A stretch of 64,000 bases of DNA from Trichoplax sp. H2 (GCA_003344405.1 NOWV01000192.1:62001-126000), one strand, 5' to 3'; shown: positions 13,145-43,904, numbered from the stretch's first letter. Made by a program: numbers and translations. The notes: generated from the letters alone by a model not told the origin.

Positions 13145-13208
13145 ATGAAACTTCTTAATACGTTAATCTGGCTAATCATTTTCTCAAGCTGCAAGCTACA
13201 AGTTTTAG
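13145..13208 (+). CDS. First coding exon of paralog 2 (signal peptide)
   Basis: MKLLNTLIWLIIFSSCKLQVL then G|gtaag. Same 64-nt length and phase-1 donor as the paralog 3 signal exon; joins in frame to the LRRNT exon. Confidence 0.75.
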
Positions 13209-16200
13209 GTAAGAACTTTTTAGGCTCAATATTTCCATTCATAATCAAGCTCAAAATAAGTGCTGCAGTGACTGCAATGGAGGGTTCGATGCGTCGGATG
13301 ATGCGTGTTTAGTCACCATACAGAGTATTGTACAAGGAGTTTAAGATAAGAGACTACTTTATTGTAAAGATAGAAATTAAGGTACAGTGTGAGAGCTAGC
13401 GTAGATCAACATACAAGCTGTCGTGAAGCAGCGCGTAAAATACTAAGGCACAAATAGTTCTAGGGTAGAAAATGCCAGCATTTATATCTATTGAGTTAGA
13501 GTACTTGCATAGAACAGGATTGTAGAACTAGATATAAGAAATTCCATAACAGGTTACAGAATAGCGGATGATCGTAGAAAATTGTGAGGACTGTAATCGC
13601 CAAATGCAACAAGCTATATTTGAATGTAGAGCAAACAGTTTGTGAATTTGTCTATATTTAAGAGCAAAACAAAATATCTATATTTAAGAGTAGCTTACAG
13701 TTACAGTACAATCCCAAATACACTACATTGACAGAAAAGCGAAAAATTTTCTCATTCTAGTCTTTGAAATATAAAGTATCGATACCAAATTACAGAGCAA
13801 AGCTGCAGATTAGGTCCGACCATATTTTGCTTTCATATATAAAATTTATCGTTGTAGAATTAAATACATCATAGATTATTGGCACGTATAATTCAGATTA
13901 TCTTACTTTATGTTTTTTAAATGAAATGTAGATAAAATACGAGCACTATAGTATATTTACCAGATTGTCAAAATTTCGATATAAATATCTGAAAGATTAA
14001 ATTGCTTACCAGCGCAACAGAGATGCCAACAAACGGTATCTTCAACCATCATTTCGTTAGTTTTGTGTCATTATTTCTCTACCTTTATAATATCCAATGT
14101 ATCATAGAAGGCATACTTATCTTAGCCGCTATAAAAAAGTTCAGACCACATTTTAAGACCTATGTTCTATAATTTATTAAATAAGATAAAGTAATCGAAA
14201 TAAATGTATACGAAAGTTTGCAGTAATTCGAAATTGTGCTAATCATATTAATTTTAGTATACAAGTCAGTATAAATGCAACCTTCACTTCTACCCTATAT
14301 TATTATATTAAGTAGATTTTGTATTCTCTTAAGTTCAGAATCCGCTGACTCAAAATTTGAGTTATTAAATTTGAGCAAATTTCAAACCGACACAAAATAG
14401 ATCAGCATCGCGTGTAGCTTAGAAGTATCGTCTATTACTTTTCCACCGATCAGGGAAGAATTCTCTTTGTTTCTTTATAAGAACATAAAAACAGCTAAGA
14501 TACATTAAATATCAATTTATAGGCTTTTTGTAAACAATTCCATATAACTATCCAAATCATATTCAAGATTTCCTTTACAGTATTCTGATAATAAAGACAA
14601 AATTAGTATATAGTTCAAAAAAGTAATTTTATACGGCTGGCAGCTACAACTTATTACAGACATAGTAACAGCATAAATACTCTATTACAATTTACCAGTG
14701 ATTATCTTGTCACGAAAGTAATCTTCATGACGTGTACTTTATTTCTATGTTACGTTTTATATATGTTTATATCTCAGAAATATTTTACGGTCTCCTTAGT
14801 TGCAACTTTAGTAGTTAACAGCTGATATCCTTAATTTAGAATTAGATAAATTAAATTAGCCATTGCCAACCAGTTAAGCCTTATTGTATCTATCATCTCC
14901 AAGGTTGTTAAGGTTCAAAGTATAATTCCCAAGTTTAGGGGAAATGTCTTATTATGATAGCTTAATATGTATCTATCACTAGTTAGCCTTCGAGAGCTGA
15001 CCAAAACTGTATTATCCACTCCAACTTGATCTCAGTTTCAATCTCAAAGTGCTGCAGTAGTAGAAACTAACTTATTCCAATATCCACCGCTAGTAAGAGA
15101 TAAACAATAGCGTTTACAGTTAAGGCCTTTGTTAAACCAGAAAATAGGAATAGCACAGTATTTCTAACTACAACTTAAAGGAGACTTTCTTTTAAGTAAG
15201 ATATCTAGCCCTTTATATAGTTTTATGACTTTACGCCGTACATACAGGTGCTAAGGCTAGTTTATATCCAATGTAATATAATTACTATAATCTTATAAAT
15301 CTTACAACATTAATACTAACAGCGCATTAAGATGTTATTTTACCGTAGTAAAGCTCGTTAATTAATCGTATTTATCACATCAGCTACTTATTACTTCTCC
15401 AAGGTGGCACAAATAAATATTTGGCCTCCGCCATCTTAGTTATTGCTAACATGCTATATGCATGCTCTAGTTATCGATTAACCATTTATAATTTTCTTAG
15501 CTTAGCATATTATCAGTCTAACAATGACGTAAGTGTCACAAAACAGCTTTGCAAGAAGATAACCTAACATACGATCAATAAGTCAATCCCTTGAACTATG
15601 TGTTAAGGAATGATATCTGTACTATTAGAAAACTTTCGCTCTACTAGCAGACTACACAAAGACTTAGATGCATCGTATTTTACGTTAAACACCAAGTTTA
15701 AAAATTAATTTTATAATACGATACATTGCGTTTATATACTCTCCCTCAATAATTTACGAGTCATGGTTAGTACGATTAACTTTGGAATCATTCACTGAAT
15801 TAGACATTAATTTTAGCTATTGCTCGAAAATAACAGTATTTACGAACATAGAAATCTGATGACTAAACACAGAATAGTCTGACTACGATATGTCCTATCG
15901 CGAGACATTTCCACGATAATTTACAATCTACCATAAGTAAGTTACAATCACAATGATTCGAACTGTAAGTAAATAACTCGCATTCCATAATATAACTATT
16001 AATTTCAGTATATGTATATATGCTACTGTCATATAAAGCCAGTGCTACATTAAAATACCGTATATCCAAATTAGAAGTTAACTAAATAAGGATAAGCTAA
16101 CAAAATTATCTTAACATATATATTTCTACTCTAATAAGTATCTAACACTGTCACAGTAAGACGTCATTATTATTCCCAATTATCACAACACTTGGAGCGA

Positions 16201-19200
16201 GCTCCGTAAACAGTATCTGTTAAACTATTATTAAGTATTGATTATTATAATACCGATACAGTAAATTTAAAAGGATTAGATTGTATCTAATCTGTACTGA
16301 TAGAATCTCTTTAGAGTATTAATTTGGTTAACTTCTAATAGATGAGATGACTTCAGTACTTAAACCTGTTGTAGTTAGCGAAACCTATATAAGCGGTGGG
16401 TTTACCGATACTATATTAGATTAATATTTTTGAACAGGTTTCGAAGGTCTCGCTGAGTTAAACTCTATCTGCTTTGGAGTACCAATTGATTGGTATTTCA
16501 AATAAGAGTAGTGTAGGATAGAAATTACTCTCTCAATCCTTTTTGTAAGTCAGGGCTATTTCTAGCTCGTAACGTATCTTTAACTACTTTATTAATCATT
16601 TCAAGTTAATCAACACCTAACAATAAAGCTTGCTTTAAATTTCTGTATTTTGAATCCGCATTGTAATCATAATTAGCCAAAATTGCCATTAATACAACAA
16701 TTTATAAAGCGACCAACACTGACTAAATATTTTGCTATTATTTGTCTGTGAATTTTCAATCTACTATATTCGTAAGAGACTGACTGTGTATTTGAATGTA
16801 CTTTTATATCATTTGATAGCAGATAACTTTGAAAATAACCAATATTTTACATACATTGAAGGCATTCTTAAATTTACATATATAATATATATAAATAAAT
16901 GTATATTTTATGCCGTAAATTTGCAGCAGTTTCACCATGTCCTCAAAGTTGTTCCTGTCCGATTGACTCTGTCATAAATTGCCAAAATCCGCTCATGACC
17001 ACCTTCCCAATCCTAACAAAAGTTATGGATAAAGTAACTACTTTGTAAGTATGTTGTATATGGTTTACACAGCCGAATATTCATGTATTTTGCATTAAAT
17101 TTTACCCATGTTGAACCATATAGTGCTTTTCAAATTTGTATAACGTAAATTTTAATAGTGTTACGCTATTTTTATTAATCTCAACTCTCTCAATGCTACT
17201 TGAAATAGAGATATCACTGGTACAAGTATTCAACATATACCTAGACACGGCTTGTCTAATTATCCAAATTTGACTTCCCTGTAAGCTAAACGGAAGTTTA
17301 TATAATCGCTCCTCAAAGAAAATCTTTTGCAAAGATAATGATTTTAACGATATACAAAAAATAGTTACCTTATCCATTAATTTTACTAGCAATAAAAATA
17401 GCATATGTCACAGGATTAAAAGTGAAATTTATTGACTTGAGCAGGTATTTATTTAAAAACAAAATAAAAAATGTCGAAGAAGGAACATTTTCAAACTTAC
17501 ATAAATTGCAATATCTGTAAGTGATTGTCAATCCAAATTATACAAATATTGTTAGCCCTAGAATCCATTAATTGAAAATAAAGTTCGTTTCTTATAGTAA
17601 TGATAGCTCCTTTATTTCACTTATTAAAAGCGCCATTGGAAATGTCAGATTAAACAATTACATTCATTTGATTTAAATTCTTTGTATAGATCCTTGTCTG
17701 AAAATCAGTTGAAAATCTTGAATTCTTCTAGAATATTTGATGGATTACTAAATTTGGAATACCTGTAAGCTGTATAAAAGTTTAACACTTAGTACGGTAG
17801 ATCTATATAATTTACTATCAGCATACTTTCCTAATACATAGCTACTGTAATTAGCTAAAATCATTATAAACCTATGAAATTTAAAACTTCAAATTCTAGT
17901 TATAAACGCAGGTAATATAATAAAGCATTATTACATTACTATTTAAAAGAATGCACGTAGTATTTAGGATCTCTAAGTAAGTAAACTCTATGCCGCTACT
18001 TTAAATATATACTATCCATACTTTAATGTATATTAATGATTGATGAAAAATGTAACCTATTGTCTTTTAAGCAAGATTTATTAATAATGTAAATTCGTTA
18101 AGACACGATGCCACGTCCTAAACTAATTTTACTTTGTCTAGGAATCATAGAAATACGTAAAAATAGTGTATTGCGTATTACAAATAGAAAGCGTATTTTA
18201 ACTTTTAACTTATTTATTTCATTAAATTAGGTACTTGCAAAACAATCAAATAGATAGGATTACCAATGGAACATTCCTAAACTTGAATAAGTTAAGATTT
18301 CTGTAAGTTTCGTTATAAATATAATAACGAGATGATCAGGATTAACGGAATATAAATATTGCTGTGCTTTCTACGCTACGTTCATGTAAGATAAATTAAA
18401 AGTTACTGAAATAACTTAAGAAGGTTTACTAGATAGCAGATACTGTAAGATACAGTAAAAATTTTAAGAATATTTAAAACTTTCGTATTTTTTTAGGAAT
18501 TACTATATCTCTATAGTATGTTAACTCTCTTATTTTAACAGTAAAAAAATTAGCTATGGAAATCGGTTTCATCCGCTCTTCAAGGGCCGTAATAATCAAT
18601 TAAATTGTTATCAATATCTGATGCAGGCTTTTGAATGGGAATCTATTAAATTCTTTGAGTTCTTCAATATTTGAAGGATTAAAAAGCCTGAAATCTTTGT
18701 AAGTAAAAAATGTAAATTACTTATATTTAAAATAAATCATTCCATTTTGATTTATTAAATCAGTATTAATTCATATTTCTTAAACATTTCAATACTGGCT
18801 ACATGACATTTGAAATAAAAGTAATTATAGAATACAGCATATATGACAGAAAGAATACATGCAAAAGATAGTCTGTTATTTAGCTATGAATATTCAATGT
18901 AAAGCGTCTAATATATCAGTATCGCTAACGTATACTTTTCAAAAGATTGAAATTTTGAGAATCCTTACCCTTAAAAACTAATATTGAAAGAGGTTTCATC
19001 TTAATGGATTTAGGTACTTGCATTCCAATAGAATTGAAGCAATTAAAGATGGGGCTTTTGAAAGTTTGAACATGTTATCTAATCTGTGAGATTTCAACTC
19101 GAATAATAAGCATAAAACTCTTTTATATTTTATCTATCCAGTTTAAGAAGAATTTACCGAGCATGCCTAAAATTTCATAATTTTAAATTAGGCCATTTCA

Positions 19201-22200
19201 ACATTCTATTCGAGCTGTTGGAAAACTAAGCATTTTCATTTTGATAATCTATATATAGCGATTTATCAGATAACATATTACCTGCTTTAAATTCTTCAAG
19301 ACTGTTTGAGGGATTGGGAAAACTGAAATATTTGTAAGCTACTTAAGCTGTAAGACCGATAACAATAATTTATTGGAAATCGTTTGTAGCTTCCATAATC
19401 TAACTTGCAAGCGTAATATCCATCTTTGTCATTATTCATAACTCTGCAAAATGGCGAGTATATTCAAGCTTATTAAAGACATTGAAGTTTTTAATTAAAC
19501 TTAAAAAATTAGCTATTAACATACTGTAGATCGACAACACTTAGCTAAACGTAAAATACTGAATTTAAAGCACAATTATCTATCAATTCTTAGCCAAGCG
19601 TCAACAATTATAAAATAATAAGTAATTAGACTTAGAATCCATACAATACATACAAGAAAGCACCTTAAAACTTATTTTAGGAATTTATCTGTGTTATTAG
19701 GTATATCTATAATAACAGGATTGAAAAGATCGCAAACGAGCCCTTTGCACAATTAAATAATTTGATAAGGCTGTAAGTAATTTTGTGATGCAACCACTAT
19801 CTAATTATTTGCGAATTAAAATTGGAAGCAATTTTCCTATCTAAGAATTTTAATTTCAGCCATTTCTAAAACGTAACGGTACTTACATTATATAAACTCA
19901 ACCTTAGATCCATCGTATGCTTTTCATAGTCTTTTGTTATTATCCATTGTAGAGACCTAAATGGGAATTTATTGAACACTATTCATCCTGGAATATTTAA
20001 AGGGCTACAAAGATTGATTCACCTGTAAGCTAAATGAAATTTTAAATATTGAAATGTACTAACAGACGTTAAAAATTATTAAGGAGCACAATAATGTCTA
20101 TTCAGTTAGACTGCTAAAAAATAACTTTTCATTAATGTATGCGTATTGCTGTAATGAATTGGTTTTAATCCATTAAGTTTATAATCCACCAACTCGAAAT
20201 TTGATTATAAAAAGTGGGCAGATCTCTAAGATAACACAATTAGGTCAATACTGCATTTAGCCAAAAAGTTTCGTTTATCAATACGTAGCACGCTTATCAG
20301 AGAAAAATTTACTTCTCCTGCTCTCATTAGAATAGTTTTCATTAGCAAAAGATAAACTGGAAAATATTGTAGCTGCAATACGGCACATTTTATAGATTAA
20401 CCGCAAAATAGATATTCTACGATTGGAGGTTTAACGTAATAGAATAATCTAAGTCACATAGTGAAAGCTTACTTAAAATTACTGTAGGATATTAATTATA
20501 CATTGCTACTGAATTAGCTCAATCATTGGAATTGCTAACATGATGTTTGAGATGATGAAATATAGAAGAGTTCATCTCACAGCTATTTATTGTAGAAGAA
20601 AATCCTAAACACATTTTCAGACGATGTGAACATAAATGAATGAAATCGATATCTTACGTAAAAGAAAATTGATTAAGAATTGAGAGGTTGTCGTTATGAA
20701 TTTAGGTACATATACCAAAATAAAATTGTAAGTATCGAAAAAAGAACATTCGCTGGCCTGTATAAATTGACTCACCTGTAAGATGTCTTCTTATATGATT
20801 GATTTCCGGCATTTTCTATTTTAAATTTATTAAGCAATCTTTCTTCGTGCAATAATATTGCAACGGTTATAATTTCTAAACCAGACTTATCTCCTATCTT
20901 ATATGAGTTTATACCACATTTGCCTGCAATGTTCTCATAAATACATGATATAGGTCATTGCAAGGAAATCTTTTGCGAGGTTTGAATTCTCCTGGAATAT
21001 TTGAAGGGATTAGAAGATTACGTCACCTGTAAGCTACGTATAAGTATACTGTAATTACATACCTATGTGAATGGCACATTACAAACTACTGGTATCCATT
21101 ACAGGAAATAAATTAAAAAAATATTAATTCTGTAATTTTTACAATTCTACATCGCTAAAACAATTTTTTTAAGAGTTATGTTGTTTACCGTACAGATAAT
21201 CGATCATTTTGTAAAATGACTTATTATCGCATTTCACTTATAAATAATCAATTACACAATAACTATTTTTGTCTCATTTTACCTATAAAATAATTAATAA
21301 ATAAATTTATTTAGATATTTAGGAAACAATAAGATAGAAAAAATAGTAGACGGAGCATTCGCAGATCTTTACTGGTTAATGACACTGTGAGTAATCACAT
21401 TGTTTGATACATTTAAATAGCTATTAGATATATGCAGAGTAAAGCTCTTGCGTCATTGTATATGCCAAGATAGATTAGGAACAATTTTATATAGCAAATT
21501 TTTTTTCCTGAGGTAGACAACCTAAATAATATTGTAATATTCTTTATTGTTAATGAATTACTCAGTGATTTGAAGGACAATTTATTGAAAGCCTTAAACT
21601 CCCAGAAAATACTGCAAGGATTATATAACTTAAAGTACCTGTAAGTTTAATCTGTTACCATGGGTAAAAAGTAAGGAATATGAGATACTGCAGTAATCAG
21701 TAGCAATTTAATTAATTATTTGCTCGCAATTTCGTACAGTACATTCTGCGAGTTATACATGAAGACTGCTGTTGTGCTTTTAGCCTTCTAGTTAACTAAA
21801 TATACGGTAGATAATTTCGTAATTACGTAAAAAAGCAATGCTATGATAAAGATTTTACTAAGTAATAGGATTGGTTTTATTAATTATAGATACCTAGACA
21901 GAAATCAAATAGAAAGAATTACAGATAAAGTTTTTGCCAATTCTAGATTTCTCTATAAATTGTAAGGTGTAATGAATTGACTATAAGACACACTGCTAAA
22001 AAATACTGCTACCAATATAAATTTGAAAACTTATTTCATTTTGCACCTTATGTAAATTCTCGGCATAACTATTTAAATTATCGTGCGATGATAATTGGAG
22101 CAGAAGCTTTGATAGCAACCTGCTGCTGGCTCTGACTTCTCCAGGAGTATTCCAAGGATTAACAAATTTGCAACAATTGTAAGTCATATTTAAATCATTT

Positions 22201-31200: not shown

Positions 31201-34200
31201 TTTTCTTTCATTTAATTGCTTTCTCACCAGAGATATCAATAACAATTATTTGACTTTCCTCAATCTATCAACATTCAGTGGGCTTTCCAGGTTAAACTAT
31301 TTGTAAGTATGAGATAAATTTGTTAAATGGATTTTTTTGTTATAATTTTTTCCAGCATGGTTGAGATATGCTGAAGATTCAAATGATTTGCAAGCGACAC
31401 ATGACAAGAAAAACAATTACTATTAATATATTTGATATTGTTTACTTACACGCACAACAGACTCCTGGATGAAAATCAGCTGACAACCATCCAAGATTTT
31501 CAGTTTTCTAAGCTACCCAAACTGCAATTCCTGTTAGTGATCAAATTTTTGACGCATGAATTGAAAGTAAAGAGCAATACAGAAATAACTGAATTACATC
31601 TGCGCTTATTTGATTAAATTTAGATACTTAAGGTCAAATAAAATAAAGCAGGTACAAACGAAAGCCTTTGTCGGACTAGAAGACATAAAACAAGTGTAAG
31701 TACGTAGATTAATTATAAATTGACTTTTAATTGGATACGATATCCTGCTGCGTAATAAATTAGACAGAGTTATATTAGAAAATTCTAATACGAAGCTTTA
31801 TAGAGCAAAATTTTAACCCAGTAATCACATTTCTTCAATACTAACCTGCCAATGTATTTTTAAAACAACGCATCTAATATATCGCAATACAATTCGTAGC
31901 TGGCTAGATGGGAATCTCTTTTACCATTTAAAAGATTTACCTCTAAACCCTTTCAATAATCTACAATACATGTAAGATTGAAGATAAGCTAAATTTCTCT
32001 AGCTAGTTTTTCGTCAGTTTATACTGTGCAACTGCAAAATTTAACGTAGTTCTAATACTTGAAAACTCATCAGCGGCTTATCTAGAAACAAAATTCGAAA
32101 GATTGATATGGTTTGTTCAAGCAAGAATAAATACAAAGTTAGCAAAATGTAAGCCAATAGCAAGCATGAAATAATTTTTGACATTGTATATATATAATAC
32201 TGAAAATTTTCGTACGCTCACTTATAAATGGTTTTGGACATGCTTGTTAACACGTATTCTAGTAAATAACATAATTCAGACTTTAGCATTTTATAGATTT
32301 GAAAGGGTATTCTAGTATCAAATTTCATTAGTTATTAAAGAGACCATTCTGTAATAAACAGGATGATTGATGCCTGTGATGCAAGTAGCCTTGTTTTAAC
32401 ACTGTACATTAAAATGGTATTTAGGCTATTTATTATGATTCCAATTTAATGTTTTTTCCCCTTATTTCTTAAATTAGAGATTTATCGAGCAACCTTATGA
32501 GTGAAATTAAAATTTCTGGATGTTTTTCTTGTTTAAAGCAAATGTAAATTATATTTGAAGTCAATTTCATTTATTCTACTGTTCGAAAAGAATTCTTAAG
32601 CAATATTTTTGTTAAATTTTGTTCCTAGGATATCAGTGTTACCGCTACATCTAATTTTATCATTTAATCAGTCAACATATTAAAAGTTATTCATTAAATC
32701 TTTGCTTTGCGTTTCAGAAATATCTCCAGCAACAGATTTACAAATGATAGAAGCCTGTCACTTCGCAACGTTTCCTGTATTACATCCTTGTAAGTAAATT
32801 CTCTAACTATGAAGCTAAAGCCCATTTTGCTAGTAACATCCGCTCGTCATTTGCTCTATTGCGTTCTCTTCTAAATGTTAATCTTGCCGAAGTTGATTGG
32901 ATAAGGAAGCATTTAAACGATCAAATTATTTTATTTATTCTAATTAAATAGTTTAGGCCGCATAAATTGCCAGTATTAATGATTAATGTTATCTTATTAT
33001 GGTCTTGCGAATTTGACCTTAAAGTTAGTTGTTTGGGTATTTTTTAGAGATATTAGCCAAAACAGAATTTCTAGCCTATCATCTGATATTTTCTCCACTT
33101 TTCAAGATCCAATACTTATTTCTACATTGTACGCATACTTATACACAAATTAGCGTAGTAAAATTGTCATATTAGCACGGATGAAAATGCTAAAAACTTA
33201 ATTAAGTTAATTTTATTTTCTAAAATTAGGAATATATCTGGTAACCGTCTTGAGTATATAAGATCTACTACATTTTATCCAACTTTAGGATTGGAAAAGC
33301 TGTAAGAGCTCATAACATAGACGTTTTTAGTTACTGTTAAATCAATCTTTGGTGATAGAACTTGAATAATACTTTACAATTATATATAATCAGCTATGCA
33401 GTTTTCGAAGAAAATTATTATGGAATTAATTAATTATTACAACGTTATAATGAGCAAATTTTTTGATAGCGTCATAATAAGCTACTAAAGGTATGATATT
33501 AAATATTACTACTTACTATTTCATTCATTGATATTGTAATATAAATTAAAATAACATCTTTGCATTACCTAAAATGGTTTAAAAACGGCTTCTATAATTT
33601 AAAATTTAGAGATTGCGGTATTAGTGTAAAGGTTAGCGTCACGAAAGTAATTTTCGTGACGTATACTTTATTTCTATGTTACGCTCTATATATGTTTATT
33701 CTCAGAAATACTTTACGGTCTCTTTAATTATAATTTAGTAGTTGACAGTTGATATCCTTGATAGGATTAGATAGACTAAAATAGTAATTGCCAGCTCTTA
33801 AACTGGATTGCATCTATCACCTCCACGGTTGCTAAAATTAAAAGTATAATTCCTAAGTTTAGAGGAAATGTCTTAGTAGGGTAGCTTAATATGTACCTGT
33901 TAAACTATTATTAAATATTAATTATTTTATTACTGATACAGTAAATTTAATAGGATTAGATTGTATCTAATCTGTAATGATAGAATCTCTTTAGAGTATT
34001 AATTTGGTTAATTTCTAATAGACGAGGTGACTTGCGCAGTTAAACCTATCGTAGGTACCAAAATCTATATAAGCGATGGGTTAGCCGATAGTAAATTAGA
34101 TTGTGAAAGTACTATAGTAAATTTTGAAGGTCTCGCTCAGTTGAATTCTATCTGGTTTGGAATACCAATTGACTGGTATTCCAAATAATAGTAGTATAGG

Positions 34201-37200
34201 ATAGAAATTACTCTCTCAATTCTAGTTGCAAGTTAGAGCTATTCCTAGCTGGTAACAGGTAGACTTACGAGATAAAAAAATTCAACTTGCAATAATCTGA
34301 AATCTCTTTAACCTAAGTTTTTACATTAAAAATTGTTATTTGTAGCAAACCTTGTAAATTGCAGGAACAATGACTTTAAATAATATTATAATCTTTGCTT
34401 ATATGTTCTCAGACACATTGAAAATAATCGCCTTGATAAGCTGGACTTTCTTCATCCTCTACAAAAATTAAAAATTCTGTAAGGACTGATATAAGTTTGA
34501 CGAAGAATTGATGACGAGAGTAGAAGTTCTCTATTGTATGAGATATTAGTCAATTTTTATCATGAAATACATATTTTTAAACGTTGTCAAAACCAGCTTC
34601 GTGATAAAGATAACGTAAAAAATCGCTGAATTACTATAGTCTTCGGGATTCAGTATCCCTTAACTATCTCACAAGCATTTAGACGCCTTTGCTTCTACGT
34701 TAAACAGCTATAGAACTCTTCCTTTATTCAACTATCTGCAGAGCATAAATACCCTTCGACAGCTGCTATCATGTATGAGTCATAAAAGTTCATAAAATTT
34801 AGTTCATGGTCGATAGCTATATTAATACAGACATTATTCATAATCTTAGACATGTTCTGAACGATTCTTGATAATAAGATTACAGTATGTTCGTACACAG
34901 AATTATTTATAGTATCATCTATAATTAAATATCTTCAGAATATTCATCACCAGTGTTACAAGACATTACAGTATGATCATTTATCATTAGTTGCCGAATA
35001 AGAACTCTTACTACATGTCACAAACTTATGTTGCGAACTACTACACTAAACTAATAGATTACTTATGCCTTGCTCCACTACACCTGGAGATCTACTGTAT
35101 GGTAGTTCTTTACTACTTTCGGTCACACAGGGATAAGACTGTTCTAAAAGATTAGTATAGTTTTTATTAGTAGAGTAGCCGAGTACCTTCTCGTACACGA
35201 TCTAATAAGGAACTCAGGAACTGAGCATTCGCTCGTCCTTTTATACCATTCCACTAAATTTATGGTGCACACATAGTAACTTGACAATATAAGATTTACA
35301 TGATTTGTATACGCGATAATCGCACGATAAGTGCGCGATAGTCACACGATAAATGCGCGGTAATCACACGATAAATGCGCGATAATCGCACGATAAATGC
35401 ATGATAATCGCGCGTACGTAGCGGGTGCTAACGTATCGCCATTATTAATATCTACTGTATATAGGCTCTACTAATTAATTGCAAATACAATTATGCCTTT
35501 TGTCGTCTAGCAATCTAGACATTAATATTCTTAATTTCAATTATGCTTACCAATATGATCCATTGGCTAAATACTGACAAAATCTATTTAATTAGCAAGT
35601 ACGGTGCTTTGCTCCGTAACACTACAGTACAGCATAATTTACTGTAACAAATAATAACTACCAAAGTTCTTACTGTAAATCATTATTAGTTATCTCCATA
35701 TATAAATGTTAACAACTAAATTTAGTGATTTACTTTTCACGGTGGTTCGTATCGTGACAAACGTATCTACTAGTATTATCAAATTTTCGAAATAATTTTT
35801 GTCTATATTTTGGTAGAAAAGATAAGATTTATTTAAACGGACAATTGGAGCTAGTAATATAACTATATTGATTTATTTTCGAAATTTACTAAATATTCAC
35901 TTCTTGGATTTTCATTTCGCTAGCCTAGCCTTTAAAAATCGAATAAGTGAACTGAAGAGTAGCTACTTCCAAAATTTAACCAATCTAATGCAATTGTAAG
36001 GGATAAGTAAATAATCCAATAGAATATTTTTTTCGGAGGCCTTTTTACTATCATGAAATTAGTACAAGATCAGCCGTAAATAATGTAGGATTATTTATAA
36101 ATAAAATAGATGCCGAATTAATTTCAAATTCTATTAAATGCTCCTAGAGATATCAGTTTTAACGAAATAAAATCTCTTGAAAATGGCATATTTAAAGGGT
36201 GTCAAGATATTGCAATCATGTAGGTTTCCATACGAGACTCTATTGACTTGACTATCAGTCTTAAATAAAAAATCAATCCCCCGTTTCATGAATCGCAGAA
36301 AGATTTCCTATAGTTCTCTTATTAAATGATCATTAATATGTAATCCACGGATATTTAGGAATCTGAATCATAATAAAATTTCTAGCATTGAAAAAAAAAC
36401 TTTCCAAGGTTTATCGAAGTTATCTTCGCTGTATGTTACTGAATTATTTTACCAGCTGTTACCAATGCGTATAAAATATTTTTACAATCTTGAAAACTAG
36501 CAAGCATTGTAACTGGCACTTTGATTTATTAGAGACCTCAGCTATAATCGAATAACATCTTTGAAAGGAATATTTCATCCAGATTTAATTGAGTTAAATT
36601 CGTTGTAAGTAATCATTTCTTTATGAATTGGAGCTACCTAGTACGGTTACTCTCTATCCTATTCGTGGACAATTTTAGTTTGAAATTTTATTTGCTATAA
36701 GCTAAATCTTCTTTTAAGAAATGCTTATTTTTAGGATAAATATTACTATTCGACTTTTAAGTTTTACTCATTGGCCTCGAATCTTCTAATTTAAACCGTT
36801 TTTTATATTCACACATGCGAAGAAAATGCGATGGAAATTTAATCTCTTCTTTAGCTGGATCACCGTTTTATAATTTAACTAAACTTGCTCATCTGTATGT
36901 TATTATTTAAAGGCTGCGCCAACTATCATATTATTAAATATAGTAGAAGGAATTAATATTTGCTAATCTAGAATGCATTTGAGTAACGAATTAATCATTC
37001 TGATGATAATATTTTGTCCTAGATCTCTGAATCACAATCAAATAGTAAAAATTAGCAACGGCAGCTTCACGAACTTAATTAGCATACGTAAACTGTAAGT
37101 CATTATTTCATTATGTGCGAATATAAGAATGCTAGCTGTGATTAGTATATATTATTATCTGAAGCAATAGTTGCAATTTTCTTCAAGTATACTATTTAAA

Positions 37201-40200
37201 ATTTTTTTTCTACTTCTCAGATCGATTAATTATAACAAAATTTCTGTCTTGTCGTGCAATTCAATTTACAAAACCATTCAAGAATTGTAAGTTATATTAG
37301 AATGATATCGATAGCTGTAAGCCGATACTTTTGGAGATGAGATTTGCTAATTATTAATCAGTTTTGTTTGTTCACACTTAACGTGGTTATTTATGCAATG
37401 GATAGTTCTGAAGTGATTTTATCATTTTCTATGTCACTTAGGAGTGTAAACCATAATAATATATCCGGTTTCTCGCCAAGTTGTAGCGAAATTTTCTCCA
37501 GCATAAAAGACAGCTTGTAAGCAATTAGAATTTTATGTTTATTACTTGCCTTAAGCGCCGTTGTTATGAATTTTTTGATTCCACTTCTGTCTTCGTTCTT
37601 TCGATATAAAATTTGAAATAGTACTTTTCGTATATCAATTTAAAGGGATATAAGCTATAATAATCTTGTATCGAATGGCATTAATATTTATAAGGAAGTT
37701 TTAATGAAATTGGCAAAGTTACCACCTACCCTGTAAGTATTTTAAAACGTCTGAAAATAATACTATGAGTCTCGAAGATCCTTATTTAAAATACTGAGTA
37801 TTTACGTAGCCTGTTGATTTGAAGCTATAAAGCTTGCATCTTAATTTTACGTTGAATTCAATAACTAGACTATTAGCCGGCAACAATATTACGTCCATAT
37901 CACCTTTATTTATGAAATGGAATATTTTCCTTAGAATATTGTAAGTGCTATTACTATTTCAGTATATTTACCTAACTTATATTTCGCATTAGTGTCAAAT
38001 GCATACAAACTTAACGAGAAATATCCGCAGCTATGTTTTCAATGCCGCTGACAATCTTAAGCATTTCAGTATACTCACCATAATTAATACAATGTATCGC
38101 ATTTACATTTAAATTTTTACTAACATATGAAGAAATATCGACAGATCTCTACTTCAATGCCTTTTACAATTCCTTCTTTAATTTGAAGATTAATAAGTAA
38201 TTTAACACTCTATCGTTGGACTGGCTTCACCACTAATAAGAAAAACTTCCACATACATCAGATATGCAGTTACACTATCGAGTTGTAGTTCATACCTGGA
38301 ACCACTAGCGCTCTACTAAAATGTACAAAATAGCTTTCGTTTGAGTGTAAATTACGTTATTCATTGAACAATAACCGATGAAGCTTCTAAAGCCGAATTA
38401 CGGTGGTTTTTACGACTTATCCAATCATAAATAATTATAATCAATGTAATCAAATATCTCTAAGCTATTGTAATAAAACATTGCATAAACGTAAATTATA
38501 ATTAAATGTTCACATTTGGTAGTTTGACTGCGTTCCTTATTGGAACTTTGAAAAATATAAAACGACGGACTAACTAAACCGTTAACTTTAAGCTAGATTA
38601 CTAGTTTATTAATAAATCCATAGGTCTATTGGCCACAACAACTTATCGCTATCTGCTATCAAAGAAATCATAAGAGGATTTTATATCACTAATTACTGTG
38701 TATCGCCAATTGGGCCTAATGACGATGCTAAGTGTTTTATTTACTCCATGTAAGTCTAGAAGCTAAAATTTATTTCATCATAAATGTAGATATGTCAGTG
38801 AAGCAACGAAAACATTCCTATGTTTTATACTAACATAATTTTCTTGCTGCTTTTATTTTCTGGATTCATTTTATTTATTTGGCGCAGTGACTTGAGCTAC
38901 AGCAAATTAACAGAAATCCCATCCAATATATTTGTTCATCTACGTGGATTTTTAAGAGTCCTGTAAGTCGTTTCACATAATTGCTAGAGTAGACCAAACC
39001 CAAATTAAAATATTAAGTATCCTACGAGGCGATTAATAGAAATAGAACTATTCAGCTTTCTCGACTACTATTAATTAGCTCGCCTTGTTTAATTCCCAAC
39101 ATGTTTGAAGGCAGTGAATAAGCGCAGCTTTTCAAATTAAACTAAATAATCGAGAAATGGATTATACGGTTGTAGTTCAGTTTTTTAAAATATTGTAAGA
39201 ACTATCGTATTAAATATTACGGGATAGCAATGTACTGGATCGTTATCTTTATTTTTTCTTTCGATATCTTATAATAGGAATCTCAATAATAACGCCATAA
39301 AACATTTTGATGCCTCCGCTATATTTCGTGATAGTGAAAAGAACTTACAAGAACTGTGAGTTAACTTTGAAACTGTTTAAATATTCATCTTTTAATGATT
39401 GTAACAAATTGGATAGAGTAAAAAATTGTACTGAACTCTTGACTGATGATGAGATAGTTTGAATACTGTATTACTATGTGTTTGAAACTGTTACTGAAAG
39501 GCCGAAGTTTTTCCCAAGATTTGCATTTTACCGATACTTTAAGATAAGGCGTTTAAATGTAGCTACATGTATGAATGGTCGATTTATGTGATAAGTTATG
39601 AACTTTAAAAGTAGTAGTAGGACTATCATAAAAATATCAATAATATTTTCAATATTTCTTGCTTTCTTTCAATACCATTTAATAGAAAAGAGTTTTTCAA
39701 ATAATCAATTATTGAGTATCGCTTTCATTATGTGAAACGTATTTTTGTAATGTAGCAAAATATACTTATATCAATGATATATTACATTAATAAAAACTTC
39801 TGCAGACATTTGGCTCATAATGCAATAGCCGAAGTAACTAATCCTAATAACGTCCAATTTAATGCACTGAAAATAATGTATGTATAAAATTCGTCTTTAA
39901 TTATACATGAAGATGCGAAAGTATATTTCTTACACGTTCAGTATTATGCGGAATTTACGTAGGAACTTGAATCAGAACACACTCTCCAACATTTGCGGAA
40001 GGTCAAACGTACTCGGAATTGCTCCTAACTTACAGAAATTGTTAAGTTTGACTTAGAATAAAGTGATATTTTCTGCATTTTTTATTATTCTTCAAGTTTA
40101 ACTTACTACTATATGAAATGTAAATTTTAGATATTTGGATTTCAACAAAATAAGAATTTTGAAAAGTAGATGTTTCAGGACACTTTTCAAATTACAACTA

Positions 40201-43177
40201 CTGTAAGTATTTCATTTCTTAGAAAAATTAGCAAGAATAAATAAATTGTACAGTGTACATGATTCTATCTCGCTGAAAGCAGAAGCTAATAATATAATTA
40301 CACCTTATGGCAAGAAAAACGTATACCAATAAGCTAATATGTTGGATAATTTGTATGATTGCCTTGAAGTTAATTAAAATAAAATTTTTCTATTAGTTCT
40401 ATTAAATCAAATCCATTAGCGCTGCTAAATGATGTTTCATTTTATGGCTCAGCGGCATTAACAACTGTGTAAGTAAAAATCTTCCTAAGTTTATATTAAG
40501 TAGCATGCTATTAACAATTTCGGCTGTAATTTTACCATACTTTAGTCAATATCCATTATTGAAACGAACTTATAAAGCTCATGTATAAGTTTTCATTATG
40601 CATCTGTAAAATGAAATATATTCTTTGATGATGCGATCAACTTAATTTAATATCCAAGCATAAAATTCAAAAATTTAAGAATGATTGCCTAGCACGCTTC
40701 TGTCTAATACAGACCTTCAAATATTGACAGCTACCTTGCCTATAGCAAGGTGCATCATAAATAGATTTAAGAAGAATCGCGGTATCATCTTACAACCACA
40801 GCAATGTGATAAATATCAATTTATTCCAATATCAGAGTGATCAATAAATAATTAAGGAGTAATATACCGGTAGACTTTATCTTTCAGTCGTTTTCATCCA
40901 TTATCAGAATTATCTATACGAAATTATACCCATATATCAAGGAAGCAGACAGAAATTAATATCAAACGGGCGAGTCATTGCCAATGGGCAAATTACTTCT
41001 AATCTTGAGCTTAACAAACTCGTATTATTCTGCATGTAAACAATTGGCTTGATCAGCTACTACCTTCTTATAGTAGTAGGAATTTACTGAATTAGACATC
41101 ATTTATCGCATAAATGATATAAAGTAAACAAAATTAGCGATGAAATAATAATTTTTAAATTTTAACAGTGCGAAAGCATTCCTAGTAATTTATATCTAAC
41201 GATAATAATTATTAAGTTGGGCGTGTTCGACTTACTCCTCGTATCCAAATTACAAGCTATTACAGTACTTGAAAATTAATCTTTGATGTTCAGTTGTTCA
41301 CATGTTGTGGGTGGTACGCCTATATATTTTCTGAACCATTTTTGGGTAATTTTATGTAGAGACTTTATGCCTAACTCGTTAGGGTTTTTTCTAAATCTTT
41401 TCTATCCTTTTATAATCCAACGTCAACTAGAGCCTCCACACGTGCTTATTTATGCTGTATAGTTCCCGCCAAGATTACAACATGTACGCCAACTCCAGAT
41501 TTAGATTCAGCCTCAAGCTGTGAAAATATACTGGCTCATACATCTTTACAATTAGCTGTTTGGATTATGGGTATTGCAGCGTTTATAGGAAATATACTTG
41601 TTATCGTTATGCATCGCACCAGTAACGATCAGAAAATGACGAAAGCTACGGAACTCGTATTTAGCAATTTAGCCCTGTCAGATTTTTTAATGTCATTGTA
41701 TTTGTTTATTATTGGTGTTGCTGATCTAATGTATCGAGATCGTTACGCTCAATATGCTGAAGAATGGCTTAGTAGTCCAGCTTGTTTTATAGCATCATTC
41801 TTAATATGTACATCAAGCTTGATGTCGGTTATTATGATGTTATTTATCAGTATCGATCGATATACTATTACTGCTAATCCATTTGCATCATCGGATGGAA
41901 GATATAAACGGACTAAAATAGCATTAATACTTGGATGGCTTTTAACATGCACCTTCGTTGGTGTACCAACTATAATGGGTATCAATCAAATTGGAGATAG
42001 ACGTTTACATGAATTCAGTTCTATTTGCTCTCCGAGTAATCTAAACAATCCATTCTACGCTGGTTGGACATTTTCCTTTGTTATAATTCAACTTATTTGT
42101 TGGATTATAACATTAATAGTCTACGTAATGTTAGTAATTTCAGTCAGTAAAACTCAACGATCCGTTCGTAGCAGTGCTCAATCTCGCAACTCTGCAATAG
42201 CGATTCGATTATCATTAATTTTAATTACAGATTTGATTGCCTGGTTACCAATTTATATAGTTTCCGCAATTACCATAATTCAAGGCAGATTAAATGTATT
42301 TACATTACAATTTGCGATCATTTTGGCTATACCACTAAATTCAGCAATAAATCCCTACATTTATACTGCTACTGGGACAGCTTGTTTCAATCGATTAGTT
42401 ACAAGAGGATCGAATAGAAAATCAGCGCAGCCGTCACATAAACAAATCTCTAATTTGCAATTGTTAACGTGCAATACTAGCTCTGTAACTCACGATAAAT
42501 CAGCCATTAATCAAGAAAATGTTGTTAATCAAGAAATGCAAAATCCCGCTGAAACATCTAACATCTGTTATGAAAACAATTGTGATAACTGTGATAACTG
42601 CATGACTGAAGGATCAGTCGGTGAAGTTCATTCTGGTAACAATGAAATAATTAGATGTAATTCTATTTATCAAAGTATCAATTCTTCATTCGCTAGCAAC
42701 CTTTCATATGTATCCGCTGATACTGCAACTATCAGAAATAATGCCGATATAAGCGATGATATCAACCACAAGAGCAAATCAACTCATGATAAAAACAGTC
42801 TTATACCCCATAATGATGTTTCGGATGCTGATCGTATTAATGCTAATGATGACGTAGGTATTATAAATCCTATGTTCTACGATCTTGATGGTCTAAATGC
42901 TAGAGAAGCCAGTCATAGGCAAGAACTTTTAAATAATAATGAGGATACAAAACATCACCAAACAACTGGCGCCCAAGATTTAAGAAAGTTTTGCTACGAG
43001 TTTGTTCCCAAAAAGCCACATAATGCTGTTGATTTGAAGATGAATAGCTGTAATAACATCAGTACACTTTATACAAATATGGAAACAGCTGATTCTGATG
43101 AAGGATTTCATCCTGCTCCATCGTTATCGAAGCTATCCTATCGTGATTTCGTATTAAAAAGGAACAACACATGGTAG
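13145..43177 (+). CDS. Complete giant LGR-type LRR-GPCR paralog 2 (63 coding exons, 60 LRR exons, ~2116 aa)
   Basis: Signal exon 13145-13208; LRRNT exon 16927-17044; LRR exons starting at about 17209, 17445, 17690, 18231, 18627, 19014, 19259, 19701, 19953, 20706, 20954, 21315, 21566, 21890, 22104, 23632, 24476, 24657, 24914, 25901, 26074, 26289, 26486, 28018, 28203, 28365, 28549, 28739, 29021, 29343, 29533, 29778, 30653, 31231, 31461, 31624, 31900, 32074, 32478, 32718, 33048, 33230, 34413, 35924, 36148, 36358, 36533, 36823, 37023, 37221, 37442, 37646, 37869, 38624, 38888, 39278, 39806, 39963, 40131, 40397; terminal exon 41431-43177. All open, GT-AG; summed length 6351 nt, divisible by 3. Confidence 0.88.
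14974..16212 (+). mobile_element. Element F (middle layer of triple nest)
   Basis: Interrupts family E with perfect TSD GTATC; ends GCTCCGTAAACA, resembling the end of element D. Confidence 0.78.
15534..16155 (-). mobile_element. TG...CA element family A, copy 2 (innermost)
   Basis: TGTCACA...TGTCACA, perfect TSD GTAAG; inverted homolog of 7579-8208. Confidence 0.9.
16927..17044 (+). CDS. LRR N-terminal cap (LRRNT) exon of paralog 2
   Basis: VSPCPQSCSCPIDSVINCQNPLMTTFP fits the CPxxCxC...C...P LRRNT pattern; phase 1 to phase 2. Confidence 0.9.
22679..23173 (-). mobile_element. TG...CA element family B, copy 3
   Basis: TGTCACGGTAC...TTTGTGACA, TSD ACTAT/AATAT; inverted homolog of 3727-4167. 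Confidence 0.75.
26733..27309. mobile_element. Degenerate TG...CA-type element I
   Basis: TGTCATA...CGTGACT, TSD CTACT/TTACT; single copy here, supported only by termini and size. Confidence 0.4.
27379..27730. mobile_element. Degenerate TG...CA-type element J
   Basis: TATTACGGTG...TTTGTGACA, TSD TGTAT/TATAT; ends resemble inverted family B/D ends. Confidence 0.45.
29913..30481 (+). mobile_element. TG...CA element family A, diverged copy
   Basis: TGTTACA...TGTAACA (perfect 7-bp inverted ends), perfect TSD GTATG. Confidence 0.88.
33637..34257 (+). mobile_element. Family E, uninterrupted copy
   Basis: CGTCACGAAAG...GGTAACA, TSD GTTAG/GGTAG; colinear with 14708-14973 plus 16213-16574. Confidence 0.85.
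35016..35621. mobile_element. TG...CA element D (nested in B4)
   Basis: TGTCACA...CGTAACA, perfect TSD CTACA. Confidence 0.82.
35312..35414. repeat. 22-bp minisatellite (about 4.5 copies) inside element D
   Basis: Unit CGCGATAATCGCACGATAAATG, itself two related 11-mers. Confidence 0.9.
41431..43177 (+). CDS. Terminal exon of paralog 2: hinge, 7TM and C-tail
   Basis: Acceptor ctag at 41427-41430, in frame with ORF 41567-43177; same hinge, DRY and NPYIY motifs as paralog 1. Confidence 0.95.
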
Positions 43178-43402
43178 TTTCTGGATAACAACTAATCAGA
43201 CATCCAATCACAAGTGTCTAGACAATACAAGTCTAATATAAATCGTAGGTGACAAAATTTCCTTGCTGCCTTTCAACCTTTATCTGCCAGTTTAAATATA
43301 TACGCTTACCATTATATACTGTGAAAACATCTATAAAATAGAATACACGCGATTAAATAAATTTATTAGCTAATGTCTTGCACGAATGGATTATAGTATC
43401 AA

Positions 43403-43904
43403 TGTCACAATTTCAACTCTGCAACTAAGAAACGTACAGTAAAAGTCTATAAGTAACTACTGATTCAAAAGCTCTTTCACTAAACGTTAAATGCAAACAT
43501 TGAAATACCGTAAAGATAGAACTTTGATTAGCATAAGCAAATCTACAACTTTTCTTTACACAACTTAACTCAATTTTTCCCGCCCATATAGCAACCATGT
43601 AATCTGTAAGCAACAAGAGTATTATTATTGTTCTACATTGGAAGAGACATTTCGAATTGAGATGTTCCTTACATAGCTTTTCTATCAGTAAATATTTTTA
43701 ATCTCTCACTCATACTTAATCTTAATCTAAGCATGTATGTTATCTAGTTCAACTATCATTGGCTAGAACTTGAATCACCTCACTACTATGTATATACATA
43801 ATGAGGCATTACTTATCTTACCTAGCACTACAAATATGGATATTTTCCATACTAGCTACTACTGCAGTATTAAACTATCCTGCCATGAAGGTATCACCCT
43901 AACA
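43403..43904 (-). mobile_element. Family H, inverted copy
   Basis: TGTCACAATTTCAACTC...CCTAACA, TSD ATCAA/ATCGA; reverse-complement match to 1514-2057. Confidence 0.8.

Follow-up and report, generated by a model that had tools for sequence, protein, structure and literature searches.

We identified, on the plus strand of a 64,000-nucleotide window of the Trichoplax sp. H2 genome, a gene (gene 2, positions 13145–43177 of the window) whose predicted chain of leucine-rich repeats (LRRs) is the longest that we found for the LGR family in this analysis. We consider it probable that gene 2 is an intact, expressed gene of the placozoan-specific LGR branch, situated in a head-to-tail array of paralogs. 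As read from the sequence, its product would be a type-I-oriented receptor of 2067 amino acids in which a signal peptide and LRRNT cap precede a run of LRRs, a hinge, and a seven-transmembrane (7TM) domain.

Exon structure of gene 2

The 61 exons of gene 2 join into one open frame of 6204 nt, the sole stop codon of which is located at 43175–43177. All 60 introns conform to the GT-AG rule, with a median length of 180 nt and a range of 85 to 3718 nt. An earlier note on this DNA, which had described an intact spliced frame of about 2100 amino acids containing the same succession of domains, was thus confirmed. Exon 1 (13145–13208) comprises the start codon and signal peptide in 21 codons plus one base and ends in phase 1 at the donor G|GTAAGA; its ATG has an A at position –3 and is preceded by an in-frame stop codon. 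The signal peptide was called solely from hydrophobicity, with a hydrophobic segment at residues 3–24, and the corresponding exon of the downstream paralog, gene 3, is also 64 nt long. Exon 2 (16927–17044), in frame with exon 1, was recognized by sequence reading as the LRRNT cysteine cap (CPxxCxC...C) and has a counterpart in gene 3 at 51096–51210. This exon shifts the intron phase from 1 to 2, and a single phase is then maintained across all LRR exons. The ectodomain amounts to 1495 residues with 20 cysteines, and each of its exons encodes the signal peptide, the cap, or an LRR.

The LRR array

Gene 2 contains 58 exons that each encode a single LRR: 42 of 72 nt, seven of 75 nt, three of 78 nt, three of 66 nt, and one each of 81, 87, and 126 nt. 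They specify 58 repeats, each about 24 residues long, that follow one another with almost no interruption (approximately 1425 amino acids in total), and a relaxed LRR core motif matched the gene 2 product 61 times at a spacing of mostly 24 residues. As a control for chance, we counted AG/GT-flanked, in-phase, open exons of 72 nt with an LRR motif, and obtained 40 on the plus strand of the gene 2 region, 0 to 5 in each of 20 mononucleotide shuffles, and six on the minus strand of the 64-kb window. Given that the boundaries of a few irregular exons, including 28549/28558, 29021–29098, and 33048/33057, are uncertain, the number of LRRs should be read as 58 plus or minus 2. The large array of single-LRR exons described in the earlier note was upheld, with 58 counted in place of about 60.

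The first 16 LRR exons (17209–23703) are located at 17209–17280, 17445–17516, 17690–17764, 18231–18302, 18627–18698, 19014–19085, 19259–19333, 19701–19772, 19953–20024, 20706–20777, 20954–21028, 21315–21386, 21566–21640, 21890–21961, 22104–22178, and 23632–23703. In this block, LRR1 is followed by seven alternating pairs, each consisting of a 72-nt exon with the pattern YLxxNxI and a 72- or 75-nt exon with the pattern DLxxNLL, and then by LRR16. LRR exons 17–28 (24476–29098), at 24476–24547, 24657–24728, 24914–24985, 25901–25972, 26074–26145, 26289–26360, 26486–26557, 28018–28089, 28365–28436, 28549–28620, 28739–28810, and 29021–29098, have collinear counterparts in gene 3 at 58219–63896. LRR exons 29–42 (29343–35995) occupy 29343–29414, 29533–29604, 29778–29849, 30653–30724, 31231–31302, 31461–31532, 31624–31695, 31900–31971, 32478–32543, 32718–32789, 33048–33128, 33230–33301, 34413–34478, and 35924–35995. 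The membrane-proximal LRR exons 43–58 (36148–40468), at 36148–36219, 36359–36430, 36533–36604, 36823–36894, 37023–37094, 37221–37286, 37442–37516, 37646–37732, 37869–37940, 38624–38749, 38888–38962, 39278–39355, 39806–39877, 39963–40040, 40131–40202, and 40397–40468, are collinear with exons of the upstream paralog, gene 1, in 16 of 16 cases, with amino acid identities of 52 to 91%. LRR48–52 are irregular and contain two cysteine pairs, and the array before them is free of internal caps.

Two further candidate exons were considered. That at 23916–23987 (72 nt, AG/GT-flanked, and open) was rejected because an LRR pattern is missing, the donor scored only –1.3, and depth in the corresponding bin of an RNA contig in this region (contig 25) is fully explained without it. 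That at 32074–32148 was excluded as doubtful, being LRR-like in its first half only; RNA depth at this position is uninformative. A search of 26558–28017 for an additional exon yielded no convincing candidate.

Hinge, 7TM domain, and 3' end

The last exon begins at 41431 (acceptor at 41429–41430), in agreement with the earlier note, and opens with the hinge (41431–41540), in which a CC...C...C arrangement is followed by a C-E-N-I-L motif just before TM1. With approximately 35 residues and four cysteines, this hinge is much shorter than those of type A to C LGRs. It aligns with the COOH-terminal portion of the hinge of TSHR and RXFP1 (C-x-P...C-E-[DN]-[IL], abutting TM1), and among 20 family sequences its Cys and Leu were invariant and C, P, and S nearly so.

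The 7TM domain (41541–42400) was delineated with Pfam, hydrophobicity, and AF2, and contains the complete set of class A microswitch residues, including the Asp of TM2, the DRY motif, W-x-P in TM6, and NPxxY, as well as the cysteine pair linking TM3 and ECL2. An HMM scan and structure prediction had been suggested in the earlier note as checks. The scan detected 7tm_1 in the last exon with an E value of 3e-24, covering profile positions 1–260 of 260; for the 7TM portion, AF2 returned a model with seven helices and helix 8 (pTM of 0.74), matching the seven hydrophobic segments. The TM2 Asp, DR(Y), W-x-P, and NP-x-x-Y were invariant or nearly so in 20 family members. The cytoplasmic tail (42401–43177, including the stop codon) consists of about 265 amino acids, is rich in Asn and Ser, and is not conserved with gene 1, divergence between the last exons of the two genes beginning after approximately residue 340. 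A Pfam scan of the tail detected no domain. A probable 3' UTR extends from 43178 to 43375, with a polyadenylation hexamer at 43352 and an RNA contig that spans 43004–43353.

RNA evidence

A random-primed RNA library (run X4) was compared with gene 2 between 23.6 and 43.4 kb. Among the joints listed, its contigs were spliced at predicted gene 2 junctions, including those of both exons that we had considered weak, and the visible junctions, such as 31695|31900 and 36430|36533, connected consecutive exons. One piece of contig 25 (969 nt) ends at 23703, and the contig includes exon 23632–23703. Its bin depths of 0.99, 1.0, 0.5, 1.0, and 1.0 equal 4.64 × (143, 144, 72, 144, 144)/667; these depths, for bins from 23500 to 26834, correspond exactly to the predicted exon bases, indicating that the weak exon 24914–24985 is included. 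The contig was further matched at 28036 and 28760, and if its end lies near 28773, about 71 nt of its length is left unexplained. Contig 29 (517 nt) covers 39806–40468 and continues into 41431–41620, with one piece beginning exactly at 41431; its bin depths of 2.54, 1.31, and 1.02 equal 8.73 × (194, 100, 78)/667 and fit exons 39806–40468 plus the last exon. Bins 32171–33504 were without X4 coverage, which at a depth of about 1 to 3 is not evidence against exons 37–40.

The earlier note had proposed a check of gene 2 with spliced RNA. Splicing was verified for the visible joints between 23.6 and 43.4 kb, but contig 25 begins at 23561, 71 nt into the intron before exon 23632, with no junction to exon 22104–22178. 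The first 17 exons are thus linked to the remainder of the gene on the basis of frame and phase, the absence of any alternative start or signal peptide, and the collinear arrangement of gene 3. Three other runs labeled "RNA?" (X1–X3) behaved as DNA, with even depth across introns, genome-collinear contigs of 1 to 5 kb, and a difference of about 1%, and are therefore uninformative with regard to transcription.

Neighboring paralogs and selection

Gene 2 is flanked by two genes that are both collinear with it, consistent with the tandem array of three described in the earlier note. The 3' portion of gene 1 lies at 55–9909 on the plus strand and consists of 17 exons, 16 encoding LRRs and one (8331–9909) the hinge, 7TM domain, and tail, for a total of 935 amino acids plus stop codon. 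The 5' portion of gene 3, also on the plus strand, extends from 48837 through 63896 to the end of the window and comprises 24 exons with 589 open codons: a signal peptide exon (48837–48900), the LRRNT exon, and at least 22 LRR exons, in the order signal peptide, LRRNT, paired LRRs, and then counterparts of LRR16–27 of gene 2. Both weak exons of gene 2 are retained in the paralogs.

The suspicion that automated annotation would fragment such genes proved justified. Gene 1 is represented in the Trichoplax sp. H2 annotation by a partial protein of only 599 amino acids (P0007), to which it is 100% identical over 8332–9906 and two LRR exons, with two LRR exons having been skipped. Among annotated proteins in the ranges of 319 to 2905 amino acids, no match to the gene 2 7TM domain was detected. 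Another Trichoplax sp. H2 protein, P0011, shows 63% identity over 702 amino acids with residues 1109–1810 of the gene 2 model. Eight of 18 database matches were named entries, all from Trichoplax.

Comparison of gene 1 with gene 2 yielded dN/dS values of 0.14 for 354 LRR codons and 0.18 for 340 hinge and 7TM codons. By position within 15 membrane-proximal repeats of this one paralog pair, the NH2-terminal repeats of genes 2 and 3 being too diverged, the values were 0.12 for the concave face (75 codons), 0.08 for scaffold positions, and 0.18 elsewhere, with no excess of change on the concave face. Values of 0.08 to 0.18 indicate purifying, not diversifying, selection on genes 1 and 2. Self-BLAST of the 16.9- to 24-kb region revealed only two short exon matches, indicating that there has been no recent exon duplication and that the repeat array is old.

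Relation to known receptors

A phmmer search of PDB with the gene 2 7TM domain retrieved RXFP1 (2e-32), TSHR (2e-30), FSHR (7e-28), LHCGR (2e-25), and LGR4 (8e-15). The 18 best distinct sequences were all LGRs (2e-32 to 6.5e-14), followed by the nociceptin receptor (1e-12). With the 7TM model as a Foldseek query, the matches listed, through rank 35, were likewise all LGRs, with glycoprotein-hormone receptors at the top. Gene 2 therefore combines the features of the LGR family: a class A 7TM domain closest to those of LGRs, an LRR ectodomain with a cysteine-rich NH2-terminal cap, and a cysteine-containing hinge abutting TM1. The last exon yielded only 7tm_1 with Pfam, and neither the TIR domain of Toll-like receptors nor, in combination with the hinge of about 35 residues, the GAIN/GPS and 7tm_2 marks of adhesion GPCRs were found in it.

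Within the family, the marks of type A and type B LGRs, with about nine LRRs in the former, 16 to 18 in the latter (PMC9545775), and a type-specific long hinge in each, are absent from gene 2. Exon reading of the ectodomain, in which cysteines are too sparse, revealed no LDLa module, the mark of type C. Hauser, Koch, and Grimmelikhuijzen (2022) assigned 41 of 46 Trichoplax adhaerens LGRs to a placozoan-specific group that has its own hinge and in which the number of LRRs is described as "unusually high" (PMC9545775). Judged by features alone, namely its placozoan origin, many LRRs, and own hinge, gene 2 probably belongs to this clade, with which it shares the phylum, an LRR-only ectodomain of many repeats, a short cysteine-rich hinge, and an LGR-type 7TM domain. 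The highest LRR number reported in that account, however, is 34, for a published example (with Tadh-LGR-15 an example from the clade), compared with 58 in gene 2. The earlier note had regarded the architecture as novel; the 58-repeat extreme stands, but many-LRR placozoan LGRs were already in print in that account, so that gene 2 represents an extreme case rather than a new class. Our literature search found no LGR with 50 or more LRRs, with the proviso that the supplement of PMC9545775 and a thesis cited there may list longer ones. The terms "LGR" and "LRR" do not occur in the main text of a placozoan cell-atlas paper (PMC10580291) or of a 2025 preprint on placozoan GPCRs.

The closest database proteins are Trichoplax models named "GRL101-like" or "relaxin receptor 2," with identities of 53 to 84%. 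These names follow RXFP1/2 and GRL101-type receptors, and RXFP1 is the best sequence match of solved structure, but such type C receptors possess LDLa modules, which gene 2 does not. TSHR, FSHR, and LHCGR resemble gene 2 in the alignable 7TM domain and pre-TM1 segment, the LRRNT, and the use of single-repeat exons to encode an LRR ectodomain, but have about nine LRRs and a long hinge. The longest countable LRR-only relatives contain about 33 to 35 repeats (P0029, 1270 amino acids, partial; P0182, 1563 amino acids), and in database LGRs of >2000 amino acids the large size is attributable to LDLa, CUB, C-type lectin, F5/8C, or Kringle domains rather than to LRRs. Two apparent giant LRR-GPCRs were rejected as fusions of tandem genes: P0172 of Amphiura (1902 amino acids) consists of two whole receptor copies, and P0044 of Ylistrum (1604 amino acids) has two 7tm_1 domains. 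Outside the family, the best LRR matches to a family ectodomain included chaoptin, Slit, and Toll-type proteins. These proteins and artichoke share long arrays of extracellular 24-residue LRRs with gene 2 but are not fused to a 7TM domain; moreover, Slit has four capped LRR domains, whereas the gene 2 array has no internal caps until LRR48–52.

Discussion

By analogy with solved LGRs, an extracellular protein partner may bind the LRR solenoid of the gene 2 receptor. Binding would then alter the way in which the ectodomain and the pre-TM1 hinge segment, whose C-E-N-I-L motif aligns with TSHR, bear on the 7TM domain, which in turn would activate a heterotrimeric G protein. Direct wiring to G proteins is plausible in light of the conserved motifs, with Gs tentatively favored in view of its coupling to the nearest solved relatives. 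We lean slightly toward an endogenous secreted or cell-surface protein as the ligand, given the age of the repeat array and the purifying selection on its binding face; recognition of a microbial or food pattern is possible but less probable.

The gene may give rise to shorter products, either from an internal start located near 23.5 kb or because LRR cassettes are skipped in frame. The actual receptor or receptors would in that case have fewer repeats, and the 5' block would be an LRR gene in its own right or be incorporated only some of the time. The start of contig 25 within a predicted intron is compatible with such products, as is the fact that each of the 58 LRR exons has a length divisible by 3 and the same phase, so that any subset could be skipped in frame; annotated database relatives also have at most about 35 LRRs. 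However, no ATG precedes the next in-frame stop codon upstream of exon 23632, so that the ectodomain of about 1000 amino acids encoded by a transcript starting near 23.5 kb would lack a signal peptide; in the upstream sequence, a signal peptide and an LRRNT occur only at 13145 and 16927. Gene 3 preserves the order from signal peptide to LRR16–27 counterparts, the visible RNA junctions link consecutive exons, and pre-mRNA could account for the 71 intronic bases in a random-primed library. We therefore regard this reading as quite unlikely, although some shorter in-frame isoforms may be made. Decay of gene 2 to a nonfunctional copy in a duplicated array would be in keeping with the failure of its 7TM domain to match the annotated proteins in the ranges searched, but has next to no likelihood in view of a frame that is intact over 61 exons, dN/dS values of 0.14 to 0.18, and spliced RNA contigs.

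With regard to function, the earlier note envisaged a receptor family for recognition of microbes, food, or self, or for cell contact. Such a receptor might sense microbes, algae taken as food, or non-self in place of the Toll-like receptors that placozoans lack, with the tandem paralogs diversifying recognition. Kamm et al. (2019) describe Trichoplax sp. H2 as having no canonical TLRs and many lectin-type recognition domains located on GPCRs (PMC6321704), the LGR family is large and clustered, and chaoptin, Slit, and Toll-type proteins are among the best LRR matches from other families. Diversification of recognition was not supported by dN/dS for the membrane-proximal repeats of genes 1 and 2, where selection is purifying and the concave face does not exceed the rest, and the exon array is old without recent duplication; we thus consider such a role rather unlikely. 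The receptor might instead capture a ligand and membrane proteins as a scaffold or coreceptor, without G protein signaling, as do LGR4–6. Long LRR ectodomains are suited to scaffolding, and LGR4 structures were among the fold matches, but in sequence the 7TM domain is far nearer to RXFP1 and glycoprotein-hormone receptors (2e-32 to 2e-25) than to LGR4, and the 20 family members show conservation at the DRY, W-x-P, and NPxxY positions, making this role very improbable. A bolder variant of the G protein-coupled receptor that we favor is that the full 58-repeat ectodomain is made and forms a multiturn, spring-like solenoid on a G protein switch, serving as a multisite or force-sensitive sensor of contact with cells, matrix, or prey. 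A run of 58 repeats would be too long for a flat horseshoe, so that the solenoid would have more than one turn, and 58 symmetric in-frame cassettes would allow regulated exon skipping to tune length and specificity from one gene. We consider this combination distinctly improbable; if true, no other GPCR would have an LRR ectodomain of such size.

Placozoans, which lack neurons and have few cell types, nevertheless possess dozens of LGRs, all of which are orphans. The assembled member of 2067 amino acids, with a neighbor annotated as 599 amino acids, suggests that public gene models badly understate placozoan LGRs. The gene 2 model sets a new upper bound for the LRR surface on a class A GPCR and provides a concrete cDNA target for deorphanization. 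It also bears on whether hinge-based activation, as in TSHR, LHCGR, and RXFP1, predates bilaterians.

Exon structure and transcripts of gene 2

The window is AT-rich and clearly eukaryotic (27–34% GC). Exons of gene 2, the receptor gene under study, were sought as open stretches bounded by AG and GT, with splice-site weight matrices trained on 43 obvious leucine-rich repeat (LRR) exons. This search recovered 58 LRR exons between positions 17209 and 40468, in a single intron phase throughout and mostly with the donor TG/GTAAGT. Joined to exon 1 (13145–13208, + strand), the cap exon (16927–17044, +) and the last exon (41431–43177, +), they form a 6204-nt frame of 2067 amino acids with no internal stop, and all 60 introns are of the GT-AG type (median, 180 nt). 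In-phase LRR exons of 72 nt numbered 40 in the gene 2 region, compared with 0 to 5 in each of 20 shuffles and 6 on the opposite strand of the whole window; the array is therefore not a product of chance. The earlier note's observation of a giant receptor gene is thus real, as a 61-exon open frame beyond the chance control, and its coordinates for the first and last exons were exact, whereas its "about 60" repeats become 58 in our model, give or take 2 owing to a few irregular exons. Two weakly scoring exons, 24914–24985 and 39806–39877, are each conserved in a paralog. The length of every one of the 58 LRR exons is a multiple of three, so that, given their common phase, skipping or duplicating any combination of them would keep the frame.

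Four of 20 listed sequencing runs were aligned to 23500–43499. Three behaved as genomic DNA and were uninformative on transcription, which leaves X4, an RNA library stored as contigs. In X4 contig 25 (969 nt, depth 4.64), one piece stops precisely at donor 23703 of the model. Over the five bins that follow, the summed X4 depth of each is 4.64 times the bases that the model assigns to exons (143, 144, 72, 144 and 144), and the same depth is seen again at 28036 and 28760. Contig 25 therefore joins LRR16 to at least LRR27 via predicted exons only. One piece of contig 29 (517 nt, depth 8.73) starts exactly at 41431, and its bin depths agree with exons 39806–40468. The joints listed for X4 include 31695 to 31900 and 36430 to 36533, and its contigs span 42041–43353, ending at a polyadenylation hexamer. 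Against the model, the start of contig 25 does not coincide with a junction but lies 71 nt within the intron upstream, and two bins in 23500–43499 were without X4 RNA cover. The first 17 exons would belong to the same mRNA as the rest on indirect grounds, namely that frame and phase are continuous, that no other start or signal peptide is present and that gene 3, the downstream paralog, is laid out identically. Gene 2 is very probably an intact gene that is expressed and evolves under constraint.

Protein features and family assignment

The predicted protein begins with a hydrophobic signal sequence (residues 1–22) followed by a CPxxCxC...C cap. The LRRs, of approximately 24.6 residues each, occupy residues 62–1486; this stretch is very poor in cysteine and contains 21 N-glycosylation sequons. 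Two repeat subtypes alternate over the 14 repeats after LRR1; their nucleotide sequences and introns are no longer alike, which shows that the array is old. Regularity is broken only at LRR48–52, where exons of 66–126 nt encode two Cys pairs, and six regular repeats then follow. A run of 1425 LRR residues cannot be one flat horseshoe and may either coil into a solenoid of several turns or bend at LRR48–52. The hinge, of about 35 residues, carries CC...C...C and a C-E-N-I-L motif adjoining TM1. The 7TM domain contains the TM2 Asp, DRY, the TM3-ECL2 cysteines, the TM6 W-x-P and NPxxY, all of which vary little or not at all across 20 aligned family members, and the tail of about 265 residues shows no conservation relative to gene 1, the upstream paralog.

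The HMM check proposed in the earlier note gave a match of the last exon to Pfam 7tm_1 (E, 3e-24). The best sequence matches of the 7TM exon among solved structures were RXFP1 (2e-32), TSHR (2e-30), FSHR (7e-28) and LHCGR (2e-25), followed by a C. elegans LGR (3e-24), LGR4 (about 1e-14) and other class-A receptors (1e-12 or worse), and the alignments extend through the hinge segment preceding TM1. An AlphaFold2 model of the last exon (mean pLDDT, 76; pTM, 0.74) retrieved LGRs in every Foldseek row listed to rank 35. Together, these results show that gene 2 has the features that define an LGR. Its 58 LRRs, collapsed hinge and lack of an LDLa module nevertheless place it outside LGR types A, B and C. 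A search of 5.8 billion proteins with the last-exon translation yielded 18 matches at E ≤ 1e-10 (6448 candidates), and the 8 named ones all belong to Trichoplax adhaerens or Trichoplax sp. H2.

Comparison with known LGRs

A re-annotation of T. adhaerens describes 46 LGRs, of which 41 are placozoan specific, have a hinge of their own and carry LRRs in "unusually high number", such as 34 in Tadh-LGR-15 (Hauser, Koch and Grimmelikhuijzen 2022, PMC9545775). In an earlier study (Roch and Sherwood 2014, PMC4079206), LRR counts are 7–26 in sponge LGRs and 20 in one from a ctenophore. We applied one regex counter, which detects 49 of the 58 gene 2 repeats, to 168 proteins, including the best 150 of 4396 matches from an exhaustive HMMER search. 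The maximum was 27 repeats, in P0029, a partial Trichoplax sp. H2 model of 1270 amino acids with an LRR region of about 880. A search seeded with P0029 brought up nothing longer among the 120 listed of 345 matches; P0182 has about 33 repeats. LGR-like proteins of more than 2000 amino acids differ from gene 2 in owing their size to LDLa, CUB, lectin, F5/8C and Kringle domains. The literature searches turned up no report of an LGR with 50 or more LRRs, a result on which the supplementary tables of PMC9545775 and the thesis behind it may bear. Gene 2 is thus an extreme member of an already described receptor kind, not a new class: the novelty claimed for it holds for the repeat count, about 1.7 times the maximum encountered in these published accounts, and not for the kind of receptor, which PMC9545775 already describes.

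The tandem array and public gene models

Genes 1 and 3 flank gene 2 with collinear exons, in agreement with the tandem array of at least three previously proposed. Gene 1 (55–9909) aligns in order with gene 2 from LRR43 to LRR58 and across the last exon, with identities of 52–91% over its 16 LRR exons, and stays open to a stop codon of its own. Gene 3 has a 64-nt signal-peptide exon (48837–48900), a cap exon (51096–51210) and at least 22 LRR exons running to the window end, with fewer alternating pairs than gene 2 and then counterparts of LRR16–27 in order.

The earlier note's suspicion that annotation could fragment such genes was borne out for gene 1. Its public model, P0007 ("GRL101-like protein, partial", Trichoplax sp. 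H2, 599 amino acids), is 100% identical to it across 8332–9906 and LRR exons 6367–6444 and 7151–7222, so that the window comes from this placozoan lineage or a near-identical one. The P0007 model (6366–9909) retains only 3 LRR exons and omits the conserved exons 6570–6641 and 6744–6821. The 142,663-bp contig that carries P0007 also encodes another paralog, P0009 (Trichoplax sp. H2, 791 amino acids, partial). P0009 is collinear with LRR50–58, has a 7TM domain 53–57% identical to those of genes 1 and 2, and may represent either the missing 3' part of gene 3 or a fourth member of the array outside the window.

A 1902–amino acid Amphiura filiformis protein (P0172), considered as a giant LRR-GPCR, was rejected, as its two full receptor copies represent a fusion of adjacent tandem genes. 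P0044 (Ylistrum balloti, 1604 amino acids), with two 7tm_1 domains, is likewise a fusion of two adjacent LRR-GPCR genes. Tandem LGR arrays therefore also exist in a scallop and a brittle star, where they lead gene callers into the opposite error.

Introns and intergenic DNA of the three paralogs share repeat copies of 73–85% identity in both orientations: 7577–8208 with 15534–16157 (minus), 1506–2059 with 43401–43912 (minus), and 3727–3933 with 34585–34783 and 22963–23173. In the three DNA runs, summed contig depth reached 680–2160 in gene 2 introns at 29503–30836 and up to 7500–11000 at 33505–36172, relative to a baseline of about 55–95, with many loose ends and odd joints. These peaks suggest that dispersed repeats of high copy number, lacking long ORFs, sit in the larger introns, and the copies shared between paralogs probably belong to the same transposable-element families.

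Selection and possible ligands

Between genes 1 and 2, dN/dS was 0.14 for 354 LRR codons and 0.18 for 340 hinge/7TM codons. The dS value in the hinge/7TM exon (8331–9350 versus 41431–42450) was 0.49, about half that in LRR exons (1.0), which gene conversion homogenising 7TM exons within the array would fit.

The earlier note offered the hypothesis that these are recognition receptors. When LRR codons were divided by role in the 15 gap-free membrane-proximal repeats of this one paralog pair, dN/dS was 0.12 at concave-face "x" positions (75 codons), 0.08 in the scaffold (90) and 0.18 elsewhere (189). These values reflect ordinary purifying selection, with no arms-race signal on the concave binding face of these repeats between genes 1 and 2, and this one small test points away from recognition.

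Structures of TSHR, LHCGR and RXFP1, the solved relatives, suggest how such a receptor might operate. A ligand would bind the LRR domain, binding would reposition the ectodomain and hinge segment against the 7TM domain, and the latter would then activate a G protein, probably Gs. Both the purifying selection and the array's age favour an endogenous protein partner as the ligand over microbial patterns, though only modestly.
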